Below, piece after piece: positions 307-24,039 of a stretch of 64,000 nt of DNA (the stretch's first letter is position 1; each line of letters starts with the position of its first letter). Both the position numbers and the translations under genes were made by a program. The notes beneath the pieces were generated by a model. The model saw only the letters and a program-made list of their open reading frames with translations. It searched no databases and was not told the DNA's origin. This DNA is from an uncultured virus (IMG/VR IMGVR_UViG_3300031227_000026) (Duplodnaviria > Heunggongvirae > Uroviricota > Caudoviricetes): IMG/VR virus record IMGVR_UViG_3300031227_000026; one strand, 5' to 3'.

Positions 307-663
307 TTCCTTTGCCGGATTTATAATAGTTCCAGCCACATTTTTAAGTTTTACTAATTCGGCACCACCTTCACTGTACCCACCAAGAGCAACACTGTCC
401 GTAATATTTTCAGTAGAAAGATCTCCACTAATTACCGGTGTTCCAGCACCTAACCGACGAACTAAAATGCCTGGCTCATAGATTCTAGTGGTAAATATTC
501 TTGCTGAGTTCGATGGCAAAATTCTCCAAAGATGGTTATCTATAGAAAATTCTGCAGTATCCCCAGTATTGAAGATAGTAAACTCTGCGTCAATACCTCC
601 CCCTGCGAAAATAAGAACCGCATCATCATCTAAAATAATAGTTGTTTCAAATTTTGCAAACAT
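1..663 (-). CDS. Tail-associated protein, 5' part only (runs off the window), with 51-aa tandem repeats
   Basis: Not in the ORF track because it is truncated. GGAG RBS then ATG at 663 (MFAKFETTIILDDDAV...), open to the window edge; follows the tail genes. Confidence 0.7.
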   Translation of the reverse strand, partial: MFAKFETTIILDDDAVLIFAGGGIDAEFTIFNTGDTAEFSIDNHLWRILPSNSARIFTTRIYEPGILVRRLGAGTPVISGDLSTENITDSVALGGYSEGGAELVKLKNVAGTIINPAKEDGNLAGIKGKTDNIPALGQALEAASTPVVLTAAQETTLTPPAAITGFALEEGGNLADIKAKTDNIPALGQALEAASTPVVLTAAQETTLTPPAAITGFALEE

Positions 664-9101: not shown

Positions 9102-9104
9102 AGT

Positions 9105-9704
9105 TTAATTTCCTAACCCAGATTTTAATTGCTTGGTTAGTATCTCAGCAATTTTTTTTGCATTCAAGTATCTTGAAACATTCCCTTTCCAAGATTTAAC
9201 AAAAGCTTGCTTACCAAAAAACATTGACCGCCAATTTCCAGATTCACCAGGATATAATTGCCAATTTTCAGATGCTTCGTGAACATAATACTGATATACA
9301 GCAAGTATAAATAGAAATCTAAAAGTTCCTTTTTTTGATTTTGCAAAACCAAGTTTGTAAGCATTTTCACCAAGTTGTATACCAAATGCATGTGATTTCG
9401 GTTGCCCTATTTGATTTGCAAATCGAGCTAAATGGCTTTTTGCTCCAAGACCATGCGCCTTACCCCCTCTAAAAACTCTACTATAAATCTTACGTGTGGT
9501 ATGTTGTTTTAAAATTTTAGCCAAAGGTACTAAAGAACCCATGGACATACCTGTATCTATTTTTATTCTTAAAGACATAGCATTAATACATGCTATAGCA
9601 GACGACGCCCAACATTCTTCAAGATGGTCAAAAATATATTTAGTGAGTTTGTCTCCCCCTTTATAAGTGGGCGGGCGGCGTTTCATACTTAATTGTCTTG
9701 GCAT
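9105..9704 (-). CDS. Basic tail-completion/neck-like protein
   Basis: IDTG motif and Lys/Arg-rich; position only. Confidence 0.4.
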   Translation of the reverse strand: MPRQLSMKRRPPTYKGGDKLTKYIFDHLEECWASSAIACINAMSLRIKIDTGMSMGSLVPLAKILKQHTTRKIYSRVFRGGKAHGLGAKSHLARFANQIGQPKSHAFGIQLGENAYKLGFAKSKKGTFRFLFILAVYQYYVHEASENWQLYPGESGNWRSMFFGKQAFVKSWKGNVSRYLNAKKIAEILTKQLKSGLGN

Positions 9705-9713
9705 GCTGATTTC

Positions 9714-9938
9714 CTAAATCATTGGGCAAGAACCGCGTGATTCTGATTCTTCATATTCACGTACCTGACTATATGCTATAAGAAGGGCTTGTGTCCAAAT
9801 ATCATTTTGAGACCAGACAGGATTAACATTATCAGGTTTTATGTCCATCCTCTCACAAACCCTCCAAATAGCATATAATTCAGTCCTGCCTTTAGGCAGG
9901 TTTCGTTGTCTTACTGCTCCTGCCGAGTAGCTAAAAAA
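9714..9938 (-). CDS. -1 frameshift extension of the tail assembly chaperone (gpGT-like)
   Basis: Slippery T TTT TTA at 9938..9932; the -1 frame stays open (SYSAGAVRQRNLPKGRTELYAIWRVCERM...) to TAG at 9714. Confidence 0.85.
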   Translation of the reverse strand, partial: FFSYSAGAVRQRNLPKGRTELYAIWRVCERMDIKPDNVNPVWSQNDIWTQALLIAYSQVREYEESESRGSCPMI

Positions 9939-10375
9939 CGTTGAGTTGCTTGATCGATCTTTTCTTGATCTAGACCATTTGCTTCAATAGCAATTTGTAT
10001 CAATCTAGATACTTCAAGATCCGAAAAACCGGACTCTTTCAACTCTGTAGCATACTCAGGCCATGTTTCAGGATTAGACATATCTACTTTTTCCCAAGTA
10101 AGCTCTTTAGTAGCTTCAAGGGACTTGAGTATAATCCAACATGTCTTGTATTCTGCCCACTTCGTTAATGCTTTTGTGTATACGGGGTCAGTAACATCCT
10201 GACTTTTAAGTCCACCAGGTCGTACAACAATAGGCGGAGTGGGCTGCGGGCACACTTTATCGAAATCATCAAACGATGCAACAGTTTGGGCTTTGAAGAC
10301 AAGATCTTCACCGTCTCTTGGAATAACGCATATTGCTTCACGCGGGCCATCATACTTTTTTCCATTGAATAACAT
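9911..10375 (-). CDS. Tail assembly chaperone (gpG-like)
   Basis: Follows the tail tube gene; ends in a slippery heptamer. Confidence 0.8.
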   Translation of the reverse strand: MLFNGKKYDGPREAICVIPRDGEDLVFKAQTVASFDDFDKVCPQPTPPIVVRPGGLKSQDVTDPVYTKALTKWAEYKTCWIILKSLEATKELTWEKVDMSNPETWPEYATELKESGFSDLEVSRLIQIAIEANGLDQEKIDQATQRFLATRQEQ

Positions 10376-10385
10376 TTCTTAACTC

Positions 10386-10886
10386 CTAAACATTAGATTG
10401 TTCTTCACGAAGAATAATTGGTTCCTTAGCATTGCACTTACCAGTAGCACTGATAGTACCTGCCTTAAGATCACCATCTTTAGACTCAACACGGAAATCA
10501 GGGAACGTATATGTTTCCTTGTCCCCACAATTAATCGGCAATGGAGCATGGACAACGACAATATCGACAGCATACGGGTTACAAGCATCATCATCCGTAG
10601 AAATCCAACCTGCAGTCGCTGCCGAACCTTCACCACTAAAGGCATCTAAAATACCAACATCACCACTTCCAGGAGATATTTTTAAATATTCCCATACGAA
10701 GTCAAACTTAACATCCATAGGAACTTCATCAGCATTACGAACACCCCATATCGTGCCCCTATCGAGGATATATTCACGTGGTGTTCCAGCTGTCCATGTC
10801 AAGTTACCCGCTCCAATACGCATTGTAAGCGAATGCCCATCGCCATCTTGAATAGAGAGATCACAATTTTTAATATCTATAATCAT
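10386..10886 (-). CDS. Major tail tube protein
   Basis: 166 aa, beta-rich; lies between the terminator-like gene and the chaperone. Confidence 0.7.
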   Translation of the reverse strand: MIIDIKNCDLSIQDGDGHSLTMRIGAGNLTWTAGTPREYILDRGTIWGVRNADEVPMDVKFDFVWEYLKISPGSGDVGILDAFSGEGSAATAGWISTDDDACNPYAVDIVVVHAPLPINCGDKETYTFPDFRVESKDGDLKAGTISATGKCNAKEPIILREEQSNV

Positions 10887-10888
10887 TC

Positions 10889-11344
10889 TTAGTCTCCTTC
10901 TGTAAGATGAACTAAGTAATCACTCGTTATGAGCGTTGCTTGGTATTCATCTTTAGGATTGATCTGGCCCAGATTGGTAACAATTATCTCGGCCTCTTGA
11001 GTCATACAACCAAGTTGTGGCTGTCCAGGTTTACCATACTTATAGATAGGTATATTAGCAAATGCTTTTAAAAATACCCCTATCAAGTCTGGAACTTTGT
11101 ACATATTTTCATTCTCTTTCATAATACAATGAATGATTATGGATATAGTAATCTCAGTATCAAGGGCTTGAGGGCCATCATTTGTGATTACCATTCTTAA
11201 AACACTTTGCTCAATAAAAAGTGGAAGTTGATCAGTATTTTGAAACTGTCCCTCAATAAAAATAGGAACATTTTCTGTACTTGCATAGGAGGCAAAATGA
11301 TTTGTAATAGAGGCAAATAGCCAAGTAACCCATTTATTATCCAT
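10889..11344 (-). CDS. Tail terminator-like protein
   Basis: Size and position. Confidence 0.5.
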   Translation of the reverse strand: MDNKWVTWLFASITNHFASYASTENVPIFIEGQFQNTDQLPLFIEQSVLRMVITNDGPQALDTEITISIIIHCIMKENENMYKVPDLIGVFLKAFANIPIYKYGKPGQPQLGCMTQEAEIIVTNLGQINPKDEYQATLITSDYLVHLTEGD

Positions 11345-11696
11345 TTAATATTCCTCTACAAGTTACTAACCAACCTTCTAAATCAGAAATAACATCGATA
11401 ATGTTATAGGACTTAGTATCGATTAGGATAATATCGGAATTAACGGGAACCGTATCTACATCCTTAAAAGCGATGGAAACTGTCAAAGTTTGCGGATCAT
11501 AGTACCCACCAATTTTCAAACCAGTACCAATTACATCTCGCCATACGCGAGTAGGACTAACGACTGCTTTTTTGATTTTGAAATCTGTAACAATCGATAC
11601 AGGGTCTCCGGTAGATAAATTATAATCTCGTGCAATCCTGCGCAAAATTACTTTCCTACCTCGAAGTTTTTTTAACCCATATAATATAGTATTCAT
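11337..11696 (-). CDS. Head-tail joining (stopper-like) protein
   Basis: Size, position, Y+..TG motif and DIILID..YNI beta pattern. Confidence 0.5.
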   Translation of the reverse strand: MNTILYGLKKLRGRKVILRRIARDYNLSTGDPVSIVTDFKIKKAVVSPTRVWRDVIGTGLKIGGYYDPQTLTVSIAFKDVDTVPVNSDIILIDTKSYNIIDVISDLEGWLVTCRGILNG

Positions 11697-11701
11697 TATT
11701 T

Positions 11702-11962
11702 TTATGACCTAGTAAGACCTGCAATTGACCCTTCTAATTTACCAATAAGGTAAAGAATCTGTCTAAATTGTTCAGAGACAGTTTTATTAAAACCATCAAA
11801 GTGTTTGTCATAGGAGGCTTGAGTTTTTATTACCCCAGCCAATGTAGCAGCTATTGTCGCCATTTCTCTCTGAGTTGAAAGAACAATCTTTGATATCCAT
11901 ACGGCCCACCCTAATACGAGAACAGAGAAGATCATATAAAATACTTCTAACCAAGCTGGCAT
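11702..11962 (-). CDS. Small membrane protein (1 TM + coiled coil), possibly holin-like
   Basis: N-terminal hydrophobic helix; AGGAG RBS. Confidence 0.45.
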   Translation of the reverse strand: MPAWLEVFYMIFSVLVLGWAVWISKIVLSTQREMATIAATLAGVIKTQASYDKHFDGFNKTVSEQFRQILYLIGKLEGSIAGLTRS

Positions 11963-11987
11963 ATGCTCACTCCTAAATTGCGTCTTA

Positions 11988-12013
11988 GGGTGGGGATTTT
12001 AGAATCCCCACCC
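11988..12013 (-). terminator. Hairpin after the capsid gene
   Basis: GGGTGGGGATT-TTAG-AATCCCCACCC; no clear U-tract. Confidence 0.6.
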
Positions 12014-12029
12014 GTCAGACAAGTTACCT

Positions 12030-13391
12030 TTAGGCGAGCATCACAGCGCCAAGACGACGATCAAGGGTCTTAATACCACAGAGGGTATCTATAGTAACCA
12101 AGTGACCTTGATTACGCCCTTCATACGTAATAGTAACGCGAACCGCGAGACCATTGAAATTAGCAACATACGACAATGCTCCAGTTCCAGGCTGCGGCGC
12201 TGCCAATGGCCTCATCACAAGCGCAAGAGCGTTGCGATGGAAACCGAAACAGTAATCACCAATAGGCCCGAGGCCAAGAAGAGCCTCATCTGCGGCGGCC
12301 GCTTCAAGTGAGCGGTTAAGCAGAACCGTAGTGGCGGTTGGAGCCGACATCAGACCATAATTAACAGCACCAGCACTAAGCAAGCGGCCAGTAGCAGGAA
12401 CAGGCGTAACAGTGTCAATCGTCAGTTCCTTATTATACTTGACAGCATAACCATCCGGGGCATTATCAACCTGAACACCCGAATACACCGTAACAACTGC
12501 AGCCGAGTCACAAGCACTCTTTAGGCCTGGAGTAATGGCGAGCGACGTACTTGGGTCACCAGTATTCGTAACAATACGCTGTGGAGTCATGTCTCCAGCA
12601 ACCGTCAGCCATGTACCAGCAACAAATACCTCGGATGTGCCCGTAATCGCAATAGTCGTCGCGCCTACAGCATGATCACCATCCAAAGCAGCTGCATCAC
12701 TATCACCACTTACGATACTAGGAACATTCTGGCCCATCCAGACATTGTAACCAAACCGGCGACCAAGAGAACCTTCACGCATCGCCGTGCCATCATCACC
12801 GATTTTCTCAGCATTCGTGAAGTCAGCAATGCCAAGCAAGTCAGCTTCAACCTTCGGAGAAACAAGTAGGTTACGACCTTCAGTTGGAACCTTGTTGGTA
12901 TTCATGAGTTCACGCAACTCAAGAACAGTCGTCTTCGTCGCACCAGCACCAAGCTGACCAACATTATACGTCAGGAAATCATAAGCCTGGTTGAGCAGCA
13001 CTTCGTCAATAGCCTGCGCAATTGACAGCATACCAGGAACAAGATACTCATCTCTAAGTTTCTTGAAACCCTTCGTCTCTTCACCATCTTTGATAATGAA
13101 AGCCGTATGGAGATGCTGGTCAAGTGGAACCGGCACGTTAGTAGCCGACGCATCCTGAATCGTAACAGCATCCGTGTCCGTCTTACGTTTCGCAACGAAA
13201 GTACCGGGCATGCGAGTATTAACGACATCACCAAAACTAGCAATATTGTCCTCGAAATCACGATGAACAAGATTTGCCGCAATCATTTGAGCTTCAAGAA
13301 TCATCAATGATTCTTGCGCCCAGACTTCGGGAATGAACGCGGAGTTGTCATTCTCGAACACAACCTTAAAACTCTTCGATCTTGTAATCAT
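12030..13391 (-). CDS. Major capsid protein (P22 coat-like HK97 fold with an insertion domain)
   Basis: FIPEVWA, GDVVN..P, VP.EGR.LLVSP, G..GRRFGYNV, FHRNALALVMRPL; directly follows the scaffold. Confidence 0.88.
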   Translation of the reverse strand: MITRSKSFKVVFENDNSAFIPEVWAQESLMILEAQMIAANLVHRDFEDNIASFGDVVNTRMPGTFVAKRKTDTDAVTIQDASATNVPVPLDQHLHTAFIIKDGEETKGFKKLRDEYLVPGMLSIAQAIDEVLLNQAYDFLTYNVGQLGAGATKTTVLELRELMNTNKVPTEGRNLLVSPKVEADLLGIADFTNAEKIGDDGTAMREGSLGRRFGYNVWMGQNVPSIVSGDSDAAALDGDHAVGATTIAITGTSEVFVAGTWLTVAGDMTPQRIVTNTGDPSTSLAITPGLKSACDSAAVVTVYSGVQVDNAPDGYAVKYNKELTIDTVTPVPATGRLLSAGAVNYGLMSAPTATTVLLNRSLEAAAADEALLGLGPIGDYCFGFHRNALALVMRPLAAPQPGTGALSYVANFNGLAVRVTITYEGRNQGHLVTIDTLCGIKTLDRRLGAVMLA

Positions 13392-13405
13392 ACTGAAATT
13401 CTCCT

Positions 13406-14209
13406 CTACTTAAAAATTACCTTGCCGTCAGCTTTAGCCTTGCGATAGGCTTCAGGATTTCTGGCAAGTTCTTTGAGATTTACTGGTTTACCTTTGCTTC
13501 TATTAAAGGCACCGGCTCCACCGGAACCATCTGCATTGAACAGATTCTGATACTCCGGCATTTCTTTCATTTTTTCGATAGCTTCGTCCACAGACAAATT
13601 AAGAACTACTGGTTTTCCATCTTTATCAGTAGTATCTAAAGCTGTCATGGGGACCTGTTGACCGGTAGGCTTTCCGTCATCATCAAGTTTATCGGTCAGC
13701 GTAGTAGTTGCCCGCATTATAGCCATAATTTGCGGGGGGTAATATGCCTTATGCTTAACTGCGGCAGCTGTGATAGCGGTTTCGATAGTTGATTGCGTAA
13801 ATCGATTTTTCCAATCATCACGTTCAGCGATGGTTTTTTCAGATTCTTCTTTCATCTTTTTCTGAAATTTTTCAAATTCAGTTTTTGCAATCTCTTCTTT
13901 GGTCTGGATAGTTTTCGATAGTACTTCAATACGTCCTTCAAGTCCAGTACGTTCTTCATCGGTCATTGTAGCTTTTGCTTTTAGCAATTCCAATTCATCA
14001 AGTGCTTTTTTAAGATTGCCTTGATTTTTTTGACGTTCGGCAACAAGCAATTTTTCAGAGTCAGCCTTAGTCATAGTTTCTGCAGCTTCAGCGGCTGCTT
14101 TATCTGCGACTGCTTTATCAGCGGCGGCTTTAGCGGCGGCTTCAGCATCCCCATCTTCAAAAATAGCATGCCAAATAGGGCTACGTGGATTGTTTCGATA
14201 ATTTTTCAT
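13406..14209 (-). CDS. Capsid scaffolding protein
   Basis: Coiled-coil, Ala/Lys/Glu-rich, NLF..GSGG C-terminal motif; upstream of the capsid gene. Confidence 0.75.
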   Translation of the reverse strand: MKNYRNNPRSPIWHAIFEDGDAEAAAKAAADKAVADKAAAEAAETMTKADSEKLLVAERQKNQGNLKKALDELELLKAKATMTDEERTGLEGRIEVLSKTIQTKEEIAKTEFEKFQKKMKEESEKTIAERDDWKNRFTQSTIETAITAAAVKHKAYYPPQIMAIMRATTTLTDKLDDDGKPTGQQVPMTALDTTDKDGKPVVLNLSVDEAIEKMKEMPEYQNLFNADGSGGAGAFNRSKGKPVNLKELARNPEAYRKAKADGKVIFK

Positions 14210-14225
14210 ACAAATGCTCCTTAAA

Positions 14226-14666
14226 TTAGGACGTCCTATACAAGTCTACATCGCCAGCCTGATATACATAAGGTTTTAAATATTGCCACGCAAGTGACGA
14301 AGGTATGTGATAAATGATATGCTCAGGAAATTCTTCTCGATTATACGAGACTGTAGAATTTGCATATTTCTGAGACGCCACGTTCAACATGTCGAACTCT
14401 TTTTCAGGGTTCACACCATCAACAATTGCGAGTGCAATTTCTGCACACGCGATTTCAAAATTATTTTCTTTTTGGGCAATATATTCAGCATACGCAGCAT
14501 CTTCAAGGTCTGCTTCAGTAAGAATATTCAAAGGTAGCGCGTCGATAAGTCTTGTAGATGTTTCTAATGCTTTTCTTTTTTCAAGATTTGTTGAGTCATC
14601 CCAAGATTGTGAAAAAGCACTATAATAAAAATAGTCATCAGCTTCTTTTAAAGTACAATAACTCAC
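14226..14666 (-). CDS. Head-tail adaptor (DnaT-like/gp15-like)
   Basis: SYCTLKEADDYF..W..KRKAL..TRLID motif. Confidence 0.7.
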   Translation of the reverse strand: MSYCTLKEADDYFYYSAFSQSWDDSTNLEKRKALETSTRLIDALPLNILTEADLEDAAYAEYIAQKENNFEIACAEIALAIVDGVNPEKEFDMLNVASQKYANSTVSYNREEFPEHIIYHIPSSLAWQYLKPYVYQAGDVDLYRTS

Positions 14667-14676
14667 ACTACTCTCC

Positions 14677-14988
14677 TTACCAAAATAAATGACCCCATAT
14701 TACTGCATTAAGAGCAGGTAGGAGTCCACGAATTCCAAATATCAACCAAGTATGAAATACTAAAAAGCACATAGCACAAATTCCAACCCACCCAGTTAAT
14801 ATGGACCTTATATACCTGGTGATAGTCTGTTGTCCCTGCGCTAAAAGAATTAAATCTAAAATACCCACTAGTGTTAGTAATATAACACCTATCCACATCG
14901 TTTTCCTCTTATGTGATGGCATAAAGTGACTTGCCCACATTAAAATAGTCGAGACACAAATTAAAGACGCTCCGATTTTAGCAATCAT
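14677..14988 (-). CDS. Small 3-TM membrane protein
   Basis: Three hydrophobic segments in 103 aa. Confidence 0.6.
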   Translation of the reverse strand: MIAKIGASLICVSTILMWASHFMPSHKRKTMWIGVILLTLVGILDLILLAQGQQTITRYIRSILTGWVGICAMCFLVFHTWLIFGIRGLLPALNAVIWGHLFW

Positions 14989-16643
14989 TTAGTATTCTCC
15001 AACTCGGCTAAATTCTTTTCGTCTTTAGGTCCGGTTCCTGTTGGATCCAAGTCTTTAGTACCGCGAGCACCAGGATTTGCAGCAGTGATGCCAGCTTTAC
15101 TTTGCGCTGCAGCCACACGCACGGCTCTTTCGGCATGATCTTTACGAGCTTTCTCGACTTCACCCTTTGGATAGCCTCGCAACTTGCTTGCTGTTTCTTC
15201 GGAAACCAAACTAGCTTCAATATCCTTTAGTAAGATTTCAGGATCGACAATAACGGTGGCAGCTTCATCGATTTCTTTTTCAATCTTTGTCATTTGTTCG
15301 ATAGTGATTTCCCTACCAACAGTTAATCTAGCGATTTTCTTAGCAATGACCTTCTGATAAGTTTTCGATGGTGACTTAATCATCATATTAGACAGTCGGT
15401 CGGCCTCATTACTGTAGTCTTCATCAGTCCTAAGGTCATAACGCCGGGGATACGTAATAACAGTATTGTCGGACTTGACGCCAAGATAATCACAATATAT
15501 CATTGCAATTTGTCGTTCGCCATATTCTAGTTCAAGACCAATATTACCTAGTCCTGCTTCAAGACCCCTTTGATCTGCAGTTTTTGACTCCGCAGATGCT
15601 CTACCAGGAGTAACATTAGTTACTGCTAAATGTATCAGGGTTCGTATCTCTAGCTTAAGATTATCTTGTTTCTCCATCGAAGCTCTAAGTGGCTCTGCGG
15701 AAGGATGAATAAATCCAGGTCTCTCTAGACCTTTAGGGTAGCGACGACCTTGAGATACACCAACTTCGAGATTTGTTTTAACATCGTCGTCACCAGCAGC
15801 TTGCTTAGCAGCATTATCCGTTAGAGCTGAGTATTGCTCAGTATAAAACGGGAAATTACTTCTGAAAGCATAGTTCATATCCGATGAAGCAAGATTGAGA
15901 TGAGCAATCTGATAATCGGCAATGTCTGTTAGTAATGAGTTTGAGATTTCAAAAATCACAAATGGTATTTGTTTCAATTTAAGAAGCATTCTACTATTTG
16001 GTACCTCTTTGCCATCTCCATCATAGAATAAAACATCAATACCTGTTTCTGTTTTCACTAACAAACGATATTGGACTTCCTCACTAGTTGGAAGACCTGT
16101 TTCTTCATCATTTATAAGGATAGTATCTTCAAGTAGAATACGTTTTAGTTGGCCATTTTCATCATATGACCAAGACAAAATTTCTTCGGCATGATACATA
16201 TAAAGATAGGGCAAGGAACCCTTTGATTCTACTAATGTAGCATTGTCTTGGATTTTCTGGCGATCTATGAAGACACCAACCTTACCTAGCGCTAGCAATT
16301 CTTCAAGAATCTTGGACCCAATGAAGTTATTCATGGTATTTCCACAAAGGTCAATACCTTTGCCTTGACCAGTAACTGCCGCATTATACTCTTTGCATCC
16401 TGTTTTTCGGATGATGTCTGCCATTTTCTGATAAATAGAGTCTTTAACCTCTAGAAGAGCAGATTTAGCATGCGCTGGACAATAAGATATGTCCTTACGT
16501 AGAGCATAATCAACTGTTGACTCTTTAGTTGAATACTGTTTCAAGTATGAATCAACAAATGCTTTACCACTAGCTAAAGTCGCCCGATATTTTGCCCAAT
16601 CAGTTATATTAGCAACATAATCAGGATGATGACTTGGTTTCAT
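14985..16643 (-). CDS. Portal protein
   Basis: HPDY..W, PYL..Y.AE.I..W, IPFV, L.DIA..IAH; follows the terminase. Confidence 0.85.
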   Translation of the reverse strand: MKPSHHPDYVANITDWAKYRATLASGKAFVDSYLKQYSTKESTVDYALRKDISYCPAHAKSALLEVKDSIYQKMADIIRKTGCKEYNAAVTGQGKGIDLCGNTMNNFIGSKILEELLALGKVGVFIDRQKIQDNATLVESKGSLPYLYMYHAEEILSWSYDENGQLKRILLEDTILINDEETGLPTSEEVQYRLLVKTETGIDVLFYDGDGKEVPNSRMLLKLKQIPFVIFEISNSLLTDIADYQIAHLNLASSDMNYAFRSNFPFYTEQYSALTDNAAKQAAGDDDVKTNLEVGVSQGRRYPKGLERPGFIHPSAEPLRASMEKQDNLKLEIRTLIHLAVTNVTPGRASAESKTADQRGLEAGLGNIGLELEYGERQIAMIYCDYLGVKSDNTVITYPRRYDLRTDEDYSNEADRLSNMMIKSPSKTYQKVIAKKIARLTVGREITIEQMTKIEKEIDEAATVIVDPEILLKDIEASLVSEETASKLRGYPKGEVEKARKDHAERAVRVAAAQSKAGITAANPGARGTKDLDPTGTGPKDEKNLAELENTK

Positions 16644-16652
16644 ATTTAACTC

Positions 16653-18296
16653 CTAGTATACATTATTAATATCTTTAGCAACATCTTGCGAAACAACAAT
16701 AGCAAGAGCTATCTCACTATACGTTCTAGCATGAGCAAAGTGATCAGCAGCATTTGCTGGTGTCAGGAATCTACCTACAGGATTACCACGTTTATCTTTC
16801 TCGTAAGTACGAGTTGGTATCTTTAAATGAGAACGGTATTCAATGGAAATATCCTTTGGTAGAGAGATAAGTTGATTTTTAAATCTACTAAGTGCTGCAT
16901 CCATCCAAGATGTTCTATCCACAGTTATTGTACAATCTTCTTCAGCATGCATATGAAGCTCTTTACCACTGACACCCATACCATAAAAGCAAAGCTTAAC
17001 TAACCCATAGAAGCGTTGTGCAAATTCTAGAGCTTTACGTCGTTCTGGATTTGCATCGATGACAGCAAACAAGACCCTATACTCTTTCAATATGGCATCT
17101 AGGTCTTCAAAATTTTCTACTTTACCTGCAGCAATAACTTGAGGCACAGCATCTATCAGGCTGTTGCTTTTTTCAGATTCACTAAGTGACCACGAGGCTA
17201 TTTCGTAATGTAGAAATTTTCCAACATCAATACCCATTGTTACTATACCATGCTTCTTGGGGCCCGAGATATATTCACCGACACATTGATCTAAAAATCC
17301 GTCTGTGATTCGTGCGCCTTCGACTTCATGTGGGATACCAAGCTTCGAGTTATAGAATTCTGTTTCATCCTCTGGGTTTGTTAGTCCTCGCAAGTAGGAT
17401 ATGGCAATTTTACTCGGTGCCTCTGTTGTGGAATAGAGTTGATTAACATGAAAGCCTCTGACCATACGATTCTCAAATGATGGCACCCATTCGCCGTCTT
17501 GTAGAAATGTAACTTTATCTTCATGAGGCAGCTTACCGAGACATTCTTTGCATATGATATATGATTCTAAAATCTTAGGATCGGAAATTACATCACTGGT
17601 CATGACCAGACAATCTGGAAAAACTAATTCAGTCATGTGCCCACAATTTGGGCATCTGAAGAAATAGTGTTCAGCAGTAGAATTATTGTACTCGCTCGAT
17701 ATTCCAAAGTTGCCAATCGTGGGCGTAGAAATTTTTATTATCTGACTGCTGACTTGCCCGGACGTTCGTTCAAGAGCTAGTGTTACATTTTTTTGCACCA
17801 TTTCATCAAGCTCATCGAATACAATCTTACTGACTGGTACGGATTTCATCTGGCTACGGGAACGCGATCCTCTGATGTACAAGTTGGCCGACCCTGCCCT
17901 TTTGTGACCAATATTCTTGACTTTAGAGAAGAGGTTTTTCAAGTGGTCAGACATTTCAAGAGCAGGGTCGAATCTTGATGCGGAAAATTCTGATGCATCT
18001 GGTGTCGATGCTGGTAGTACATAGAGGATAGACTCGGCCTTTACGTCGATAGTAAATAAAGTTACATTTAAACATGTCTCAGTGAATCCCATCTGAGCCG
18101 CTTTTTGCCCTACCCAGTCGTCTTCACAATCATGCATTTCTCGAAGCCAAGGATGGCGCTTAAATGCCCAAGGACCAGGAAGTGGCATACCCATAACGCG
18201 GTAGGCTTCTGCCCACTTGGATGCTGTAGTAATAGACTTTCTGCGGAGTCCAGAGACAAGTCTTTCTCTAAATACTGTTATGAGTTTATCGTTCAT
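16653..18296 (-). CDS. Terminase large subunit (lambda GpA-like)
   Basis: KAAQMGFTE (Walker A-like), FDELD (Walker B), ISTPT, CPNCG zinc site, MGIDVG nuclease motif. Confidence 0.92.
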   Translation of the reverse strand: MNDKLITVFRERLVSGLRRKSITTASKWAEAYRVMGMPLPGPWAFKRHPWLREMHDCEDDWVGQKAAQMGFTETCLNVTLFTIDVKAESILYVLPASTPDASEFSASRFDPALEMSDHLKNLFSKVKNIGHKRAGSANLYIRGSRSRSQMKSVPVSKIVFDELDEMVQKNVTLALERTSGQVSSQIIKISTPTIGNFGISSEYNNSTAEHYFFRCPNCGHMTELVFPDCLVMTSDVISDPKILESYIICKECLGKLPHEDKVTFLQDGEWVPSFENRMVRGFHVNQLYSTTEAPSKIAISYLRGLTNPEDETEFYNSKLGIPHEVEGARITDGFLDQCVGEYISGPKKHGIVTMGIDVGKFLHYEIASWSLSESEKSNSLIDAVPQVIAAGKVENFEDLDAILKEYRVLFAVIDANPERRKALEFAQRFYGLVKLCFYGMGVSGKELHMHAEEDCTITVDRTSWMDAALSRFKNQLISLPKDISIEYRSHLKIPTRTYEKDKRGNPVGRFLTPANAADHFAHARTYSEIALAIVVSQDVAKDINNVY

Positions 18297-18832
18297 TCAC
18301 TATCCTTACCTTGAGCCATGATTTCCATAATCCCATCTGCTATTTTAGAAATCATTGTTTCATCGTGGATATGTGCCCCAATGACTTCTATTACTTGCAC
18401 TGCGAATTGTATCAAAGTCTGTTTATCGAGGAGGGTATCCATTGAACCTTCTAGCTTATGGCAGCTTGACACCAGCTTTTCGATTTTAACAACGAGTTCA
18501 GAAATAGTCTGTGATTTCAGCAATAGGTCAGTAGAATCCTTACATCTATTTATTTGCTCTTCAAGAAGCATCCGTAAGATGGCGATTTCATCTCGTAGAG
18601 TCTTGATACCATCGGAATTATAAAAATCATCGAGTCGAGCTTTATATTTTTCGATACGATAATTTTGTAATTGCTTTTTAGTTATGTCATTAGCTATATG
18701 AGTACCACCATGACACTTACAGTATTTCGTACCCGAAACAGAGACATTCAAACATTGTCCATGAGTACCGATAACTGCTTGACATCGATTTGGGTCGTCT
18801 TCTTCAGTTATTCTTTCCATGCCTTCAGCCAT
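18293..18832 (-). CDS. Probable terminase small subunit
   Basis: Directly upstream of TerL; RC..QC..C.CHGG motif; LRDEIAILR helix. Confidence 0.65.
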   Translation of the reverse strand: MAEGMERITEEDDPNRCQAVIGTHGQCLNVSVSGTKYCKCHGGTHIANDITKKQLQNYRIEKYKARLDDFYNSDGIKTLRDEIAILRMLLEEQINRCKDSTDLLLKSQTISELVVKIEKLVSSCHKLEGSMDTLLDKQTLIQFAVQVIEVIGAHIHDETMISKIADGIMEIMAQGKDSE

Positions 18833-18895
18833 TGTATTCCTTTCATGATCTCAAAATCACGACAGATTTTAAAATCAGAATATGATCTCTATACT

Positions 18896-18925
18896 ATACT
18901 ATCCGAATAAGCTATAATCGTCTAA
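18896..18925 (-). promoter_or_regulatory. Promoter for the packaging/virion operon
   Basis: TTAGAC-gattatagcttattcgga-TAGTAT; same pattern as the promoters at 63.2 and 63.4 kb. Confidence 0.65.
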
Positions 18926-19055
18926 CTTATTTCCGTAATGTTAAAAAATAGATTTATTTTTGCATTTCAGAATTTTGTCGAGATTTTGAAATCAGAAATT
19001 TTGATTTTTGGAATTTTGATTTTTAGAATCATACCAGATATTTACCTACCCGGTA

Positions 19056-19219
19056 TCTTGGCTACTTGTAGTCTTTGTATCTTGCCTCTTGGCTACTTGT
19101 AGTCTTTGTATCTTGCCTCTTGCCTCTTGCCTCTTGCCTCTTGCCTCTTGCCTCTTGCCTCTTGCCTCTTGCCTCTTGCCTCTTGCCCTTGCCCTTGCCC
19201 TTGCCTCTTGCCTCTTGCC
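19056..19219. repeat. Heptamer microsatellite (TCTTGCC)n preceded by a 31-bp duplication
   Basis: 11 consecutive TCTTGCC from 19111, then 3 CTTGCC, then 2 TCTTGCC. Confidence 0.95.
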
Positions 19220-19297
19220 CTATTTCAAATATTCCTGAGTTCAGATACCGTAACCAGGACATCAATCAATCTTAAGTCCTTTACCGTCTTCTTCGCG

Positions 19298-19332
19298 AAA
19301 AAACACCCACCCTGCGCAGGGCGCAGGGTAGG
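19298..19332 (-). terminator. Rho-independent terminator closing the GC-rich operon
   Basis: CCTACCCTGCGC-CCT-GCGCAGGGTGGG followed by TGTTTTTT. Confidence 0.8.
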
Positions 19333-19347
19333 CATCAAAGCGGCGGC

Positions 19348-19425
19348 TCATTTTTTCATAGGCATTAAGACCCCTAGAACGTAGCCAAGTGCGGACAAAC
19401 ACGCGCCTAGAATGACATTATCCAT
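19348..19425 (-). CDS. 25-aa hydrophobic peptide
   Basis: GAGGAG RBS, then MDNVILGACLSALGYVLGVLMPMKK. Confidence 0.45.
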   Translation of the reverse strand: MDNVILGACLSALGYVLGVLMPMKK

Positions 19426-19453
19426 CGGCAAAGTCTCCTCGATTAAAGACATG

Positions 19454-20719
19454 TCATTTCTGGGCATCCGCGCGCGCTTTTTCGACTTTACTAGCCAAAG
19501 CGACACGCTCTGACTTTGCAAGCTCGACGGCATCCGCGAACAGGCGGGCGTCGGCATCGAGCGCAACAAGACGCGCTTTGTCGATATTTGCGCCGGCGGC
19601 CATTTTCAGCGTAAGTTGAACGACTTCAGATAGATACGTTCCCGACTTCAATTCGCCGAGCATGGCCTTTGCGGACATCGCCTTTGCCGCTTTTTCGCCA
19701 TTGGCCGCGGCCGCCGCGGCAACGACACTGTTTTCCTTGACCTTTTGCCAAGCCAGCTTGTAGTTTGCGCCGACTTTGTAGCGGTCAACACCAGCGGGGT
19801 TGTCCAATTTCGCATCGGCATCTTTATCCGCGCGAAGTGCCTTCGCAAGGTCAACAAGGTCGGTTGTCTTGACTTCCGGCAACTCGCCAAACGCATGCGT
19901 TTTGTCGAGGACAAGTTTGAGCGAGTTCGCCCACGCTTCCGACACTATCGGCGGCAAGCTCATCAGTCGAGTATACTTTTGTATGACGCCACGGCGCCCG
20001 ACGAATGACCGCGCATCTGCGCGTTTGTTCTCGCCTTTTTCGCGAAGTTCGGCAACTTCCGCGCTCAACTTGGCGTTCGGATGGATGCTGTCGATGAGTC
20101 CGCCAAGACGCGCGACTAGCGCCGGTTCTGCGCTTATGCCAGCGGCGCGCAACATGCGGACTGCGCGATACAACTCGGTTGGCGTGCGCAACGCGATAGT
20201 GTTACCGCTATCAATTTTCAGATCCATTTCCTGCGCAGGCGTCAAGTTGTGGTAAACTTTGACACGCGCCGTCGTTGCATTCAAATAGCGCAGGGCGGCG
20301 GCGCGCCGATGTCCCTGTAACGTTCGCGCGACGTTCGGGGCATCGTCTAGGACATTCGCGCTGATATGCTCGCGCTGTCCGACGGCATCAATATCGGCCG
20401 CCAGATTAACGATGTCCTGTCTGTCGGCATCGCGCACGTTTTCGACTTCGAGCAAGTTCGATAGCGGGTAGTCTTCCACTAGCTGGAAAACGTAGCCGCT
20501 ACTGTCCGTGCCAGAGAAGTGTTCCTCGACAAGCTCAAGCGCGGCCGCGGCCAACATCTTGTCTTTTGCGGTCATTTTGACAGGCGCCGTCGGCTTGACT
20601 TCGACTGGCGCCACTTCGGCCTCTTCGGCCTCTTTGGCCTTCGGCTCGACTGGCTCGACTTCGACTGACGCCGTCGGCTCGACTTCGACTTCGACGGCCG
20701 CTTTGGTTTTCTTGCTCAT
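19454..20719 (-). CDS. ParB/Srx-like domain protein
   Basis: ENVR..IVNLAADIDAVGQREHI..LQGHRRAAAL (ParB GxxR motif); N-terminal VEVEP low-complexity tract. Confidence 0.7.
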   Translation of the reverse strand: MSKKTKAAVEVEVEPTASVEVEPVEPKAKEAEEAEVAPVEVKPTAPVKMTAKDKMLAAAALELVEEHFSGTDSSGYVFQLVEDYPLSNLLEVENVRDADRQDIVNLAADIDAVGQREHISANVLDDAPNVARTLQGHRRAAALRYLNATTARVKVYHNLTPAQEMDLKIDSGNTIALRTPTELYRAVRMLRAAGISAEPALVARLGGLIDSIHPNAKLSAEVAELREKGENKRADARSFVGRRGVIQKYTRLMSLPPIVSEAWANSLKLVLDKTHAFGELPEVKTTDLVDLAKALRADKDADAKLDNPAGVDRYKVGANYKLAWQKVKENSVVAAAAAANGEKAAKAMSAKAMLGELKSGTYLSEVVQLTLKMAAGANIDKARLVALDADARLFADAVELAKSERVALASKVEKARADAQK

Positions 20720-20822
20720 TTTTCATTTCCTCAATGTGTGTGTATTCTGTTTTTCAAATCATATCGGCAAAAGTTCACAATTTGTGAACAGGCGGCGGGC
20801 GCGGTCGATAGATGGCATATGT

Positions 20823-20896
20823 TCGCGCGCGCGGTGCGGGGGTCGTGCGGATGGTGCGGATGGTGCGGGTCGTGCGGATGGTGCGGGCGCGCGCGA
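20823..20896. repeat. 9-bp GG-rich repeats enclosed by (CG)n inverted arms
   Basis: TCGCGCGCGC ... (GCGGATGGT/GCGGGTCGT)n ... GCGCGCGCGA. Confidence 0.85.
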
Positions 20897-20907
20897 GCAT
20901 TTGCTAT

Positions 20908-21114
20908 CTACCTACTCTCAACGACGGTTGCAACTTCGGCAACGGTTGTTGCCACTTCAAAAACGGCATCAATGTATATACGCAAAAGGTCATCGACTTC
21001 GTCCAGCGTATTTTGCGCACATAGCGAGTCTCGAACGACGGCCATGACTGCGACGGGCGGCGCGTGCCTGCAGTATACAGCTAGGTCGGTAATGGCTTGC
21101 TTGCTATTCATCAT
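20908..21114 (-). CDS. Hypothetical protein
   Basis: AAGGAG RBS; ATGA overlap with the upstream gene. Confidence 0.6.
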   Translation of the reverse strand: MMNSKQAITDLAVYCRHAPPVAVMAVVRDSLCAQNTLDEVDDLLRIYIDAVFEVATTVAEVATVVESR

Positions 21115-21410
21115 TGCCGGCTCCTTTCGGCTCGCTCGGCGGCTCGTTCGGCTGACGTGGCAACGGCCTGCGCGCAACGCAAATTGAGGTCGGCCGCCTG
21201 TGCATCCAAAAGTGCTAATTCGGCAATGTGTTCGGCGGCATCGGCTTCCACTTGCGCTGAAGTTTGTTCGGTATAGATAGTAGCGTGCGCGCGCGCGGCG
21301 GTGGCGGCGTCGATGGCCACAAATGCTTTTCGCGCCATTACCACCACTTCGGATGTGCGTTTGGCGACAGCGCCGCGCGTAAACTTCATAAATTCTCGCC
21401 TGTTCATCAT
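21111..21410 (-). CDS. Hypothetical Ala-rich protein
   Basis: AAGGAG RBS, then MMNRREFMKF. Confidence 0.6.
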   Translation of the reverse strand: MMNRREFMKFTRGAVAKRTSEVVVMARKAFVAIDAATAARAHATIYTEQTSAQVEADAAEHIAELALLDAQAADLNLRCAQAVATSAERAAERAERSRQ

Positions 21411-21446
21411 CTGGTCGGCTCCTTTCAGCGATAATTCGCTAGACAA

Positions 21447-21476
21447 AGTATAACATAATTTGGCGCCTTGTGTCCA
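21447..21476 (-). promoter_or_regulatory. Sigma70-type promoter of the GC-rich operon
   Basis: TGGACA-18 bp-TATACT with an extended -10 TG. Confidence 0.6.
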
Positions 21477-21570
21477 GAATAAAACAAAATATTATCCCCA
21501 TACGGCGCAAAGGGTTATGACTTTTAGGGCAGAAATTTTAATTCAGGTATTCAAATACCACAATACCACT

Positions 21571-21888
21571 ATATAGGGAATGTTATATAGTCTAAATGTT
21601 ATAGAGGATGTTATATAGTCTAAATGCTATAGGGGATGCTATAGGGGATGTTATAGAAGATACTATAGAAGATACTATAGAGGATACTATAGAGGATATT
21701 ATAGGGGATATTATAGGGGATATTATAGGGGATATTATAGGGGATATTATAGGGGATATTATAGGGGATATTATAGGGGATATTATAGGGGATACTATAG
21801 AAAATACTATAGAAAATACTATATGGGATACTATAGGGGATGTTATATGGGATATTATAGGGGATGCTATATGGGATATTATAGGGGG
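21571..21888. repeat. 12-bp tandem array (ATAGGGGATATT)n
   Basis: 21 consecutive 12-bp units at 21629..21880 plus degenerate flanks. Confidence 0.95.
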
Positions 21889-21911
21889 TGCAAGATGCCT
21901 CTTCAGACTAT

Positions 21912-21999
21912 TTGATCCGGCAACTTTTCGGATCGTTGATCCGACAACTTTTTAGATCGTTGATCCGATAATTTTTTGGATCGTTGATTTTTAAAATCA
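21912..21999. repeat. 24-bp GATC-rich repeat (about 3.5 copies) ending in a TGATTTTTAAAATCA palindrome
   Basis: TTGATCCG-N-AACTTTT-N-GATCG units. Confidence 0.9.
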
Positions 22000-22002
22000 C
22001 CT

Positions 22003-22171
<169 letters not shown>

Positions 22172-22912
22172 TCAAGTATGGATAAACCTTTTAGGACTGT
22201 TTTTTAGGCAATAATGGAGTCACACCCGAAGGACTATAATAAGCTCTGCAGTATGCAAGCTGCAGTATGCAAGCTGCAAAGATTTTATGATCATAAGAGT
22301 AGTCTAATGTATGATTCCAACTTCTCGACAAGATTCCCGAACATTTCACAAGCCACAACATCTTGCCCTACAGGGCTTTACATCAATATCCACCAATCCG
22401 TCATAAGTCCTTGCTATATATAGACTTTATATTTTACATTCATATTCCCAATTTTTGCTGTTGTTAAATAAAATAGAATAAAAATATATACAATAGGACT
22501 GGGAGCCTCTAATCCGGAAGTCTATCAAACTCGCAGGAAGCCCGCTACAGGCTACAACCAGCTTTACCGATAATCCCAGCCAACACGGTTTCAAGCAAGC
22601 CTACAAGCCGCCAGCAAGCTCTAACAGGCTTGTATCCCAACATTTACGTAGGCGACCCGATTCTATGATTCGGTGTTCTTGTCAAGATCCTGTCCCCAAG
22701 AGTTTATAATAAATGCCTCAATAACAGACGCATCGGCACCTTCCTGTATTGCCTTTCTACACTCCCTTAGGTCAACACGCATCGCCGCATCAGCACACTC
22801 CCGTTCGGCTTCTGCCAAATGCCCAATAGCAAAGATACGATGGTGACCGTATGCCGGTATTTCGGATTCTAAAATCAAGACGTAAGCCTGTCCGATATGT
22901 TTTTCAACACAT

Positions 22913-23470
22913 TCATCGCAACGAGCCAAAGTAATGTCCCTCCTTACATTCACGGTAACGCTTTACAAAATGTGCCGCTGCAGCCATTGGCGGCAAACAT
23001 TCTACCAACAAACCATCCTCAAGCCCAGTTTCACCATCATCAAAAACAGTGCTCCACGGTAGCAATGTCTGGAACTCGGTAACAAGACTTTTCTTATCAG
23101 CTTTTTTAATAATACGCTTCTCAGAGTAATCCGGCCTGCTGATATCTAGCCCCGTATAAATTGCCGCCTGAATCCGGACCTCTAGCTCACACAGCTTTTT
23201 CGATTGCAAAAACACCTTCAATGGAGACGATAGGTCGCCAATATATGCTTCATGGGCATCATGAAGCAGTCCCCACAAAGGAAAAAGTCCTTCTTGCGGA
23301 ACAGCCCGTGATACAAGGATCGAATGCTCCGCAACGGAATAGAACTGTGAACAAAATCCCACGAATCGACATAAATGCCCCAATGAATGTGCAATCTCTA
23401 CTATAGTATACTCGTGTTCTTCAGGATTTGCAAAATCAAAAAGCTTCGTAGAGTGGTAAGTTGCTATCAT
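22913..23470 (-). CDS. HD-domain phosphohydrolase (YfbR/YfdR-like nucleotidase)
   Basis: CRFVG..YSVAEHS..LLHDAHEAYIGD..PLK..AD. Confidence 0.85.
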   Translation of the reverse strand: MIATYHSTKLFDFANPEEHEYTIVEIAHSLGHLCRFVGFCSQFYSVAEHSILVSRAVPQEGLFPLWGLLHDAHEAYIGDLSSPLKVFLQSKKLCELEVRIQAAIYTGLDISRPDYSEKRIIKKADKKSLVTEFQTLLPWSTVFDDGETGLEDGLLVECLPPMAAAAHFVKRYRECKEGHYFGSLR

Positions 23471-24039
23471 GTATATGTCGTCCTTTCTGGTAATATTTGT
23501 ATACCACCTATCTTTGCCATCTTGTCTATTATTCGTCGGGCAGGTTTCGGTGTTTTCCACGGCATTGACCAGAAAACCTCTTTACCGGAAGACTTTTCTC
23601 GTACTGTGATCCACCACATATCCTCTACAATTTCTTCCCTTATGAAACTCTCACAACATACTCGTGCCGTAAATTCTATCATCATAGGGCTCCACAAAAA
23701 GTATATTCATTTTCTTCAAACCAGTCAGCAAGTATACCGCTTATTGAGGATTGTACATCCCGTATTTGATGTATCTGCTGGACAGTCACCCAGTTATTGT
23801 GGCCATCTAGTCCAATAACACCATAGCTCCACACAGGATGATTTGCTCCAAAGTGTTTGGAAGCAGTCAGGAATCCAGTTTGCACATAACCTTCAAAACT
23901 AAACTTAAAATATTCCCCAAGACCTATAGTCTCTGGAATTGTTAGCAAGTCATATCGTGACAAGATTTCAAAAATCTGTGACGTTATCTCGACCACTACA
24001 TCTGGAGTACCCTGTTGCTCTAAAATTTCCAGTGCTCTT

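Follow-up and report, generated by a model that had tools for sequence, protein, structure and literature searches.

A divergent ParB-like protein encoded in a GC-rich operon beside the terminase genes of an uncultured, AT-rich phage

Many orphan and divergent ParB-CTPase folds are carried by phages and plasmids, according to Kaljevic et al. 2025 (PMC12704722). Precedents on mobile elements include VirB (PMC10653881), KorB (PMC11790492), which in plasmid RK2 is a CTP-dependent sliding clamp and a long-range repressor locked by KorA, and HerB/YfjB of the F plasmid, an orphan ParB-like protein induced upon plasmid entry (10.64898/2026.07.07.736705); further ParB-like proteins activate phage thymine dioxygenases (PMC13229309). 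Here we describe an operon (19298–21476) that codes for a ParB-like protein of 421 aa (P0001; gene at 19454–20719, − strand) beside the terminase genes of an uncultured virus of the Caudoviricetes, represented by the IMG/VR record IMGVR_UViG_3300031227_000026. Positions are those of the window, that is, the whole stretch of 64,000 nt that was analysed. The reading that we favour, and hold with moderate confidence, is that this operon is an inherited, separately transcribed orphan-ParB module of an uncultured AT-rich siphophage clade, which acts on nearby cis repeats and is not foreign DNA.

The ParB-like identity of P0001, proposed in a preliminary description of the sequence, is supported by profile matches of its homologues and by its predicted fold. 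An exhaustive HMMER (phmmer) search recovered 64 relatives at E ≤ 1e-3 (best E 5.5e-22), mostly of 340–400 aa and aligned over residues ~85–400; the closest homologue is only 34–35 per cent identical. Because the homologues align only over this span, residues 1 to ~80 form an extension specific to this protein, with an acidic disordered stretch (1 to ~50) and a segment, 51 to ~75, whose helix is absent from the homologues (predicted helix 51–67). They are followed by a ParB/Srx NTP-binding domain (~75–172) containing G136-H-R-R139, a central helical region that aligns to the ParB DNA-binding domain, and a helical C-terminal third with generic matches only, which ends in a long helix of 40 residues (381–420). 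In PHROGs the one match of P0001 is weak and falls on a methyltransferase family, at the ParB-like N-terminus of its members (E 6.6e-4, residues 82–169 of P0001), and a word-indexed search found one relative carrying PF02195. Among the aligned homologues, ParB profiles are matched as follows: Pfam ParB_N in 19/48, TIGR00180 in 23/48, Noc in 20/48 and the PHROG ‘ParB-like partition protein’ in up to 28/48.

Nine residues (N94, R96, G114, G136, R139, D170, E182, P256 and G317) are invariant across the alignment of 48 sequences. They include the box I-like pair N94 and R96, the acidic residues D170 and E182, and both G136 and R139 of box II, whose pattern GxxRxxA is present as G136-H-R-R-A-A-A142; R138 is conserved in at least 90 per cent of the sequences, and GHRR stands at the position of the ParB GxRR. 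AlphaFold2 (AF2) supplied with the alignment reached a predicted local distance difference test score (pLDDT) of 88.0 and a predicted template modelling score of 0.74, as against a pLDDT of 41 from the single sequence. Comparison of the model with the PDB by Foldseek placed KorB first (8qa9, E 2.7e-7), together with Noc (7nfu), PadC (6ryk), ParB-CDP (6sdk) and CTPgammaS-bound ParB, all between E 2.7e-7 and 1e-5, and the top BFVD matches are ParB/Spo0J-like proteins of phages. Pairwise superposition with VIA-align gave Z 12.3 for PadC (root-mean-square deviation 2.1, 93 residues aligned), Z 12.1 for the N-terminal part of pNOB8 ParB (192 aligned, residues 73–334), Z 10.6 for KorB (residues 80–178), Z 9.2 for sulfiredoxin and Z 8.1 for Spo0J (residues 99–336). 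P0001 thus belongs, as a divergent member, to the superfamily of ParB-CTPase folds; its middle part probably binds DNA, and nucleotide binding is plausible. Two further ParB-like genes of canonical make-up (Pfam ParB_N + HTH_ParB; 58087–58950 and 62078–63064, both − strand) flank a SNF2-type helicase in the replication module of the same phage. Their products have no detectable similarity to P0001 beyond the GxRR region, so that three mutually very divergent ParB-fold proteins occur in one apparently virulent phage.

Each of the described systems resembles P0001 in part. KorB, its best Foldseek match, likewise has small proteins co-transcribed upstream and illustrates the use of a ParB fold in regulation, but it is ~15 per cent identical; no IncC/ParA was found here, the two small upstream proteins (orfA and orfB) belong to no KorA-like family, the carrier is a phage rather than a plasmid, and one palindrome was found instead of a set of OB-like operators. 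Chromosomal ParB/Spo0J and Noc share with P0001 the N-terminal ParB/Srx fold and the GxRR box, and the central region of P0001 superposes on the DNA-binding domain of Spo0J. They differ in their C-terminal region and in that no ParA was found for P0001, which also lacks the ParA-binding motif. No canonical 16-bp parS was recognized at the P0001 locus. HerB/YfjB (10.64898/2026.07.07.736705) is also an orphan ParB-like protein, with an NTP-binding domain, a helix-turn-helix and a novel dimerization module, and is encoded in leading-region DNA proposed to serve establishment. It is larger, however, with subdomains past residue 600, its entry-first position has been shown for F, and the likeness is one of description. 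Also comparable are the orphan phage proteins of the ParB-CTPase fold in PMC12704722, which are divergent, long-branched, carried by mobile elements, free of a ParA motif and equipped with extra unannotated domains; a slot next to the terminase, inverted repeats around the gene, arrays in its flanks or an anomaly in GC3 (the G+C content at third codon positions) are not mentioned in the available text of that paper, and the word ‘terminase’ occurs in it 0 times. Our literature search, supplements lying outside it, likewise met with no account of a ParB gene in a slot beside the terminase that has inverted repeats around it, arrays or an anomalous GC3.

The slot beside the terminase genes is shared by relatives. 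In this phage the operon adjoins, as had been noted, the terminase genes: a large terminase (TerL) of GpA type, identified by family profile matches (16653–18296, − strand), and a 179-aa putative small terminase (TerS; 18293–18832, − strand), which matches phrog_3678 (no assigned function) and shares homology with the gene that relatives carry upstream of TerL, its presumed role being deduced from position. The loci of the family comprise three IMG/VR contigs and twelve metagenome contigs (L009 repeats L006, L016 equals L017 and L011 is nearly L012). The ParB homologue lies 1.1–2.3 kb from a homologue of TerS (41–49% identical to the candidate of the window) in L006, L008, L010 and L017, and beyond TerS the contigs L006 and L008 continue with TerL (52–56% identity) and portal (48–49%). 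TerL of G002 is found ~10 kb from the ParB homologue, across the closure of the contig. The window and G002–G004 are 52–56% identical in TerL and 27–31% in ParB, and G002–G004 among themselves 56–62% and 36–40%. The order of relatedness is thus the same for the two proteins, with ParB evolving faster, which indicates that the ParB gene is an old resident of this slot. Its orientation differs: ParB is divergent from TerS in 4/4 relatives with TerS in view, whereas the operon of this phage is co-directional with TerS.

The operon has the composition and the organization that had been attributed to it, namely that of a self-contained unit, rich in GC and CpG, within AT-rich flanks. The segment 19261–21480 has a GC content of 0.559 and a CpG observed/expected ratio (O/E) of 1.51, compared with 0.408 and 0.88 in the rest of the window, and in a 500-bp profile the GC content is 0.55–0.58 within the operon and 0.33–0.34 in the adjoining windows. 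Transcription would start from a sigma-70-like promoter on the − strand (TGGACA-18-TATACT with a TG extension, 21447–21476), which at 10/12 matches is the best in 18500–23000, where 10 promoter-like matches occur compared with 6.8 in shuffled sequences. It would end at a hairpin with a T run resembling an intrinsic terminator (19306–19332, hairpin 19323–19306, − strand; consensus and inverted-repeat match). Between them lie four open reading frames (ORFs) on the − strand: orfA (21111–21410), coding for an alanine-rich helical hairpin of 99 aa; orfB (20908–21114; 68 aa), whose start overlaps the stop of orfA; the ParB-like gene; and an ORF for a hydrophobic peptide of 25 aa (19348–19425), with GAGGAG upstream. 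Three of the four are preceded by AAGGAG, GAGGAG or GAGGAA. Profile scans assigned orfA and orfB to no family, and look-ups in the protein atlas returned generic helical hairpins only. The spacer between orfB and the ParB gene measures 190 bp; its RNA fold (20715–20925) is no better than that of shuffled sequences (z −1.37), and Rfam gave no match in 18500–23000.

GC3 is 0.64, 0.59 and 0.55 in three operon genes, against a median of 0.37 (s.d. 0.11) for 69 genes of the window. Adaptation to high expression is not behind these values, because the major head gene is outside the 14 highest-GC3 genes. The same excess is found in the family: in 13/14 loci the homologous gene has a GC content of at least 0.50 and a GC3 of 0.56–0.78 within flanks of 0.38–0.49, the exception being L008 (GC 0.449, GC3 0.41). 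High GC3 thus is, as judged from these sequences, a long-maintained trait of the ParB gene family. Since the anomaly has been maintained across deep divergence, it cannot be the trace of a recent transfer, and selection or a biased process is needed to explain it.

The ParB gene of the relatives is framed by inverted repeats. Ten contigs were tested (L006, L007, L008, L010, L011, L012, L013, L015, L017 and L018; nine distinct loci), L014, L019 and L020 being left out for their short flanks and L009 and L016 as duplicates. An inverted repeat of 20–29 nt, lying 12–70 nt outside the ORF on both sides, was present in 10/10, with scores of 14–23 compared with a shuffle maximum of 12; the score was reached by 0/60 shuffles in each case. 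The arms are located at 7624–7650/9100–9126 in L006, 7956–7987/9114–9145 in L008, 4102–4130/5329–5357 in L010, 7521–7546/8788–8813 in L017, 546–574/1792–1820 in L018, 1658–1686/2925–2953 in L007, 1832–1857/3059–3084 in L012, 567–594/1866–1893 in L013 and 3–26/1214–1237 in L015. Their sequence varies between phages and is matched within each; in G002, G003 and G004 they occur only as one pair, and the bracket coincides with the GC-rich stretch. Read by eye, the mismatches of the arms show no enrichment of sense-strand G:U, so a stem joining the 5′ and 3′ ends of the mRNA has no advantage, as an explanation, over protein sites in pairs or over recombination of one arm with the other. The ParB gene of the window has no such tight bracket (inverted-repeat score 7, under the shuffle mean). 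A wider one is present: a 25-nt inverted repeat, with its left arm at 18970–18994 (+ strand) and its right arm at 22312–22336 (− strand), encloses the arrays and the operon in a module of 3.4 kb. The left arm matches the reverse complement of the right one at 21/25 positions, a score reached by 0/200 dinucleotide shuffles. A motif scan located a weak third copy of this motif, with 5 substitutions, just upstream of the TerS start (18846–18870, − strand).

Tandem arrays are also concentrated around the operon, more densely than had been stated. Tandem Repeats Finder located, on the terminator side, a 15-mer (×2.2) and a 16-mer (×3.2) in 18997–19106 and the heptamer TCTTGCC ×16 (19111–19219, 98% matches), and on the promoter side a 28-mer (×2.6) followed by the 12-mer TATAGGGGATAT ×21.7 (21572–21887, the 12-mer array at 21628–21887), a 24-mer ×3.2 with a GATC-containing hairpin in each unit (21912–21988), the heptamer TGTCTCA ×23.9 (22003–22170) and a 14-mer ×2.4 (22246–22278). 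The operon had been placed between two heptamer arrays: arrays do lie on both sides and the left one is TCTTGCC ×16 as described, but the nearest major array on the promoter side is the 12-mer, then the 24-mer and only then TGTCTCA. Within 2.5 kb of the ParB gene, tandem repeats amount to 163 bases per kb compared with 11 in the rest of the genome; the corresponding values are 69 and 6.8 in G004 and 31 and 8.5 in G002, and arrays lie within ~1.1 kb of the ParB gene in L010, L012, L013, L015 and L018. In most of the loci the distance from gene to array is no more than ~2 kb. Inside the operon, a 17-bp palindrome (GTTCACAATTTGTGAAC, 20773–20789), unique in the window and 54 bp upstream of the ParB start, is a candidate operator or loading site; being a single copy, it is not significant by count, as 8/100 shuffles give at least two matches. 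A repeat scan also found a 29-nt inverted repeat (83%) between orfB and the ParB gene, enclosing GTGCGGATG ×4.7 (20804–20915). The motif TTGTCGRRAT/TTGTCGRNR shows no convincing clustering at the operon locus. Two arrays of relatives touch contig ends. The flagged ‘direct terminal repeats’ of G002 (C1, 1–127 and 64596–64750) are one 13-mer tandem array (AAAAATTTTTCTA) split over the contig ends, which is an assembly break inside the array and no mapped terminus. Contig C1 of G004 starts (1–114) with ACTGGT ×19, the reverse complement of the TACCAG ×18 (20423–20530) that adjoins its ParB gene 20 kb away; these are either two inverted arrays flanking the structural genes or an assembly artefact.

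The depletion of restriction sites previously noticed in the operon survives correction by Markov and codon models. The segment 19261–21480 contains CCNGG 0, GGNCC 0, GTAC 0 and GATC 1 times. An order-2 Markov model predicts 19.5 sites in total, and a synonymous-codon shuffle that keeps the proteins predicts 19.0; a count of ≤1 was obtained in 0/2000 simulations and 0/1000 shuffles, respectively. Because the sites were chosen after looking, a post hoc correction was applied, in which the four most depleted among 32 palindromic patterns (4-mers and NNxNN 5-mers) were compared with the same statistic in the simulations. The observed value was then reached in 20/2000 (order 2), 138/2000 (order 3, a model that fixes 4-mer counts) and 0/2000 (codon shuffle) cases.

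The sites do occur elsewhere in the window, as had been remarked, but the rest of the genome is itself depleted about twofold. In the remaining 82.3 kb of the 84.5-kb genome, observed and expected numbers are 71/138.8 for CCNGG, 51/149.1 for GGNCC, 104/214.3 for GTAC and 188/328.5 for GATC; these four and GGCC are avoided 2- to 3-fold genome-wide relative to the order-2 expectation. Once scaled by the genome's own O/E, the expectation for the operon falls to ~9.4, compared with 1 observed (Poisson 8.6e-4, post hoc). Among 223 sliding windows of 2220 bp, the rank of most depleted is shared by the operon and a GC-rich repeat-gene region at 47.7–50.7 kb. GGCC is halved genome-wide but not in the operon (15/15.7), and GANTC is in excess genome-wide (364/293) but low in the operon (2/7.5). 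The ParB genes of the relatives show no depletion of the four sites. We read the avoidance in the operon as a local extreme of a phage-wide, presumably host-driven avoidance that is fully shared with it; long residence in the phage agrees with this better than a recent import would, and the operon is not marked out by it as first-entering DNA. The second GC-rich region contains a gene of no known family (48979–49794, − strand; GC 0.62, GC3 0.81) that encodes about ten 15-aa repeats of the type GTVSGGxARFYDTST, with a 45-bp DNA repeat at 48993–49441. Another site is nearly absent from the relative G002, which has 3 CTAG for 100 expected.

On the reading that we favour, P0001 would dimerize through its C-terminal helix and form a clamp, switched by NTP, that is loaded at specific cis sites within the non-coding surroundings of its gene; the candidate loading sites are the palindrome 20773–20789, the 25-nt bracket motif and the tandem arrays. 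From there it may spread or bridge over the terminase-proximal region, and it might act like KorB, Noc or VirB in organizing or regulating this DNA, rather than serve partition. No ParA turned up in the operon or among the scanned proteins (19 + 63 + 21 + 30), a scan that had small ORFs and most + strand ORFs outside it, and the ParA-binding motif [LFI]G[KR]G[LFI], as defined in PMC12704722, is absent from P0001 by inspection. The host-type promoter suggests early expression.

Several observations weigh against this reading. P0001 itself belongs to no Pfam family (the gathering score of PF02195 is not reached) and also falls below the NCBIfam threshold. The region of box III is without an evident canonical ParB motif, which leaves it uncertain that CTP is bound or hydrolysed. 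The scan for ParA did not extend to small ORFs and most + strand ORFs. The promoter and the terminator are consensus matches only, and hence candidate elements. The units of the arrays, which are non-palindromic direct repeats, have no sequence in common between the two sides of the operon or between phages, and G003 has no arrays near its ParB gene (0 tandem-repeat bases per kb compared with 4). Finally, the high GC3 that has been kept receives no account here, and the function on terminase-proximal DNA is deduced from position alone.

An alternative that would give the position of the unit a different meaning is that the array-bracketed segment is a genome end or terminal repeat, the first DNA into the cell, transcribed at once by the host RNA polymerase, with a ParB-like protein that coats, protects or positions the genome and an avoidance of sites that reflects exposure before other defences. 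The promoter is of host type, the unit stands immediately upstream of TerS and TerL, the usual place of pac or cos, arrays flank it and its depletion exceeds the genome level; HerB/YfjB (10.64898/2026.07.07.736705) adds a plasmid precedent induced right after F entry. We nevertheless hold it to be rather unlikely. The region at 47.7–50.7 kb is as depleted, the ParB genes of relatives are not, and with three methyltransferases of the phage's own the packaged DNA would be protected throughout; the HD-type dNMP phosphatase next door occurs widely in phages, without being specific to T5, and the sole ‘direct terminal repeat’ flagged in a relative is the split 13-mer array of G002. The concatemer junction of T7, with its heptamer arrays, and the first-step-transfer DNA of T5, which avoids sites, are analogies and not tests. 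The T7 junction resembles this locus in having arrays of 7-bp units on both sides of a discrete segment near packaging genes, but there the segment is a short, non-coding terminal repeat, whereas here it is a 2.2-kb operon next to a GpA-type terminase; a literature search on this junction returned nothing to the point. A further idea, which appears unlikely to us, is that of an establishment or anti-silencing device. The GC3-rich operon, driven by a host promoter, would escape AT-seeking silencers of the H-NS, MvaT, Lsr2 or Rok type, and the clamp would load at the flanking repeats or bracket sites, spread on the incoming genome and clear the silencers as VirB does with H-NS. If true, this would account for the high GC3, the matched bracketing sites, the operon's own promoter and terminator, and a position where DNA may enter first.

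The bracket raises the question of whether inverted repeats bound an invertible or mobile cassette here, with the ParB gene as its cargo or its enzyme, hence its own GC-rich composition and its altered orientation relative to TerS. Invertible segments of the Hin/Gin type have inverted-repeat crossover sites at their boundaries, and such boundaries exist here as the 25-nt pair (21/25), around the 3.4-kb module, and in all ten relatives tested, where the arms differ between phages yet match within each, are unique in G002–G004 and coincide with the GC-rich stretch. We regard this as doubtful. No invertase adjoins the repeats, and neither the operon nor the genes beside it showed a recombinase or transposase family; phages of only 52–62% TerL identity have the ParB gene in a conserved position, ParB divergence tracks that of TerL, each genome has a single copy, the ParB gene of the window lacks the tight bracket, and arms that match might just as well bind a protein as a pair of sites, or form an RNA stem between 5′ and 3′ untranslated regions. 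That the operon is a foreign moron, recently acquired from a donor rich in GC and playing no part in the phage cycle, would agree with the GC and CpG contrast, a GC3 ~2 s.d. above the phage median, the private promoter and terminator and the want of a homologue above 34–35% identity, but it is improbable. The operon had been called an island, and in the sense of foreign DNA this term is not supported: relatives have the homologous slot, 13/14 homologous loci show the same GC3 excess, distances between ParB proteins mirror those between TerL proteins, and the avoidance of CCNGG, GGNCC, GTAC and GATC in the operon is that of the phage itself, taken to an extreme; moreover, its left junction is identical in the contigs L003 and L004. 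Still less credit can be given to P0001 as an activator of a DNA-modifying enzyme. According to PMC13229309, phage ParB-like proteins do activate 5mYOX T-dioxygenases, and this phage has a dCMP deaminase, the HD dNMP phosphatase, glycosyltransferases and three methyltransferases. However, no dioxygenase or other modifying enzyme is encoded in or next to the operon, the 5mYOX-associated ParBs are described there as having no DNA-binding domain whereas the P0001 model aligns with ParB DNA-binding regions, and the two ParBs of the replication module are better candidates. It is highly improbable that the operon is the classical partition cassette of a P1/N15-like plasmid-prophage whose centromere is formed by the arrays. 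Membership of the ParB family and the adjoining arrays would suit it, and iterated centromeres are known on plasmids, but ParA and its binding motif are missing as reported above and no integrase, protelomerase or repressor was seen among the scanned phage proteins, whose content is that of a virulent phage.

Almost all genes of the window are on the − strand. The structural and packaging genes code for a tape-measure protein of 1772 aa, a major head protein, a scaffold and a portal (14985–16643), in addition to the terminase; other genes encode a dCMP deaminase, a ligase, a sigma-like factor, a family-A DNA polymerase and the SNF2-type helicase, and there are four tRNAs. A 47.8-kb record (G001) matches window positions 36760–64000 at 100% identity, runs on for ~20.5 kb past the window and ends in the 153-bp tandem repeat of window 1–311; the longest contig with the 421-aa ParB-like protein has 84,505 bases. 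From this overlap, the repeat end and the length of that contig, the assembly closes on itself at ~84.5 kb. The extra ~20 kb codes for a primase, an exonuclease, an RNA ligase, glycosyltransferases and three DNA methyltransferases (two D12 N6-adenine and one N6/N4). With its own polymerase, primase, helicase, ligase, sigma-like factor and tRNAs, the gene content is apparently that of a virulent phage. The repeat at 1–311 (153 bp, ×2) lies within an ORF, and both G001 and the contig of L003 end there; it is likely to be an assembly breakpoint rather than a genome end. Portions of 17500–23500 are contained in 19 runs labelled salt-lake metagenome, and in two of these runs fractions of 0.93 and 0.92 of the sampled words of this region are present. 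This coverage, together with the slot conserved in relatives, argues against a chimeric assembly. The left junction of the operon is also present, at 100% identity, in L003 (window 6656–21128) and L004 (12333–20347), whose independence from the source of the window is uncertain, and a 37-mer of the right junction had no match in viral or metagenome contigs.

The arrays on the promoter side adjoin a gene for the HD-type dNMP phosphatase (22913–23560, − strand). As a link to T5 this gene was discarded, since its matches come from diverse phages, with no T5-like one among the 25 matches listed. The dNMP phosphatase, dCMP deaminase and glycosyltransferases (sites concerned, besides 22913–23560: window 41901–42338, − strand, and positions 7259–9110 of L034) may together point to a changed nucleotide pool or to DNA modification; the scanned phage proteins included no dioxygenase. 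The early/replication region encodes an NYN-domain (RNase-like) protein (52821–53396, − strand) and a small Rho_N-domain protein (54348–54704, − strand). Cultured phages and plasmids contain no DNA similar to 16653–22500 by blastn and no protein similar to P0001 by tblastn, and tblastn of P0012 against phages and plasmids was equally negative. A search for related loci with P0007 and P0008 found nothing, and a scan of genome contigs gave a 24-residue match only. Vibrio phage PS14A.1, the TerL of which is 23% identical, has a different gene neighbourhood.

Although phages and plasmids commonly encode orphan ParB-fold proteins, a role is known for few of them. What this locus offers is a recurrent architecture, in which a fast-evolving ParB-like gene occupies one slot beside the terminase, is GC3-rich in AT-rich genomes, is bracketed by matched inverted repeats and is mostly flanked by arrays; binding studies thereby gain a set of candidate cis sites. 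The locus presents a compositional puzzle as well, for an anomaly at synonymous sites has been kept over deep divergence and goes beyond recent horizontal transfer. A caution follows for the annotation of phage genomes: what looks like a GC-rich ‘island’ with avoidance of restriction sites can be an ancestral gene of the phage, with traits common to its family and to the whole genome. If P0001 does act on the DNA near the packaging genes or on the genome as it enters, a clamp of ParB type would join the infection cycle of phages, outside plasmid-prophage partition.

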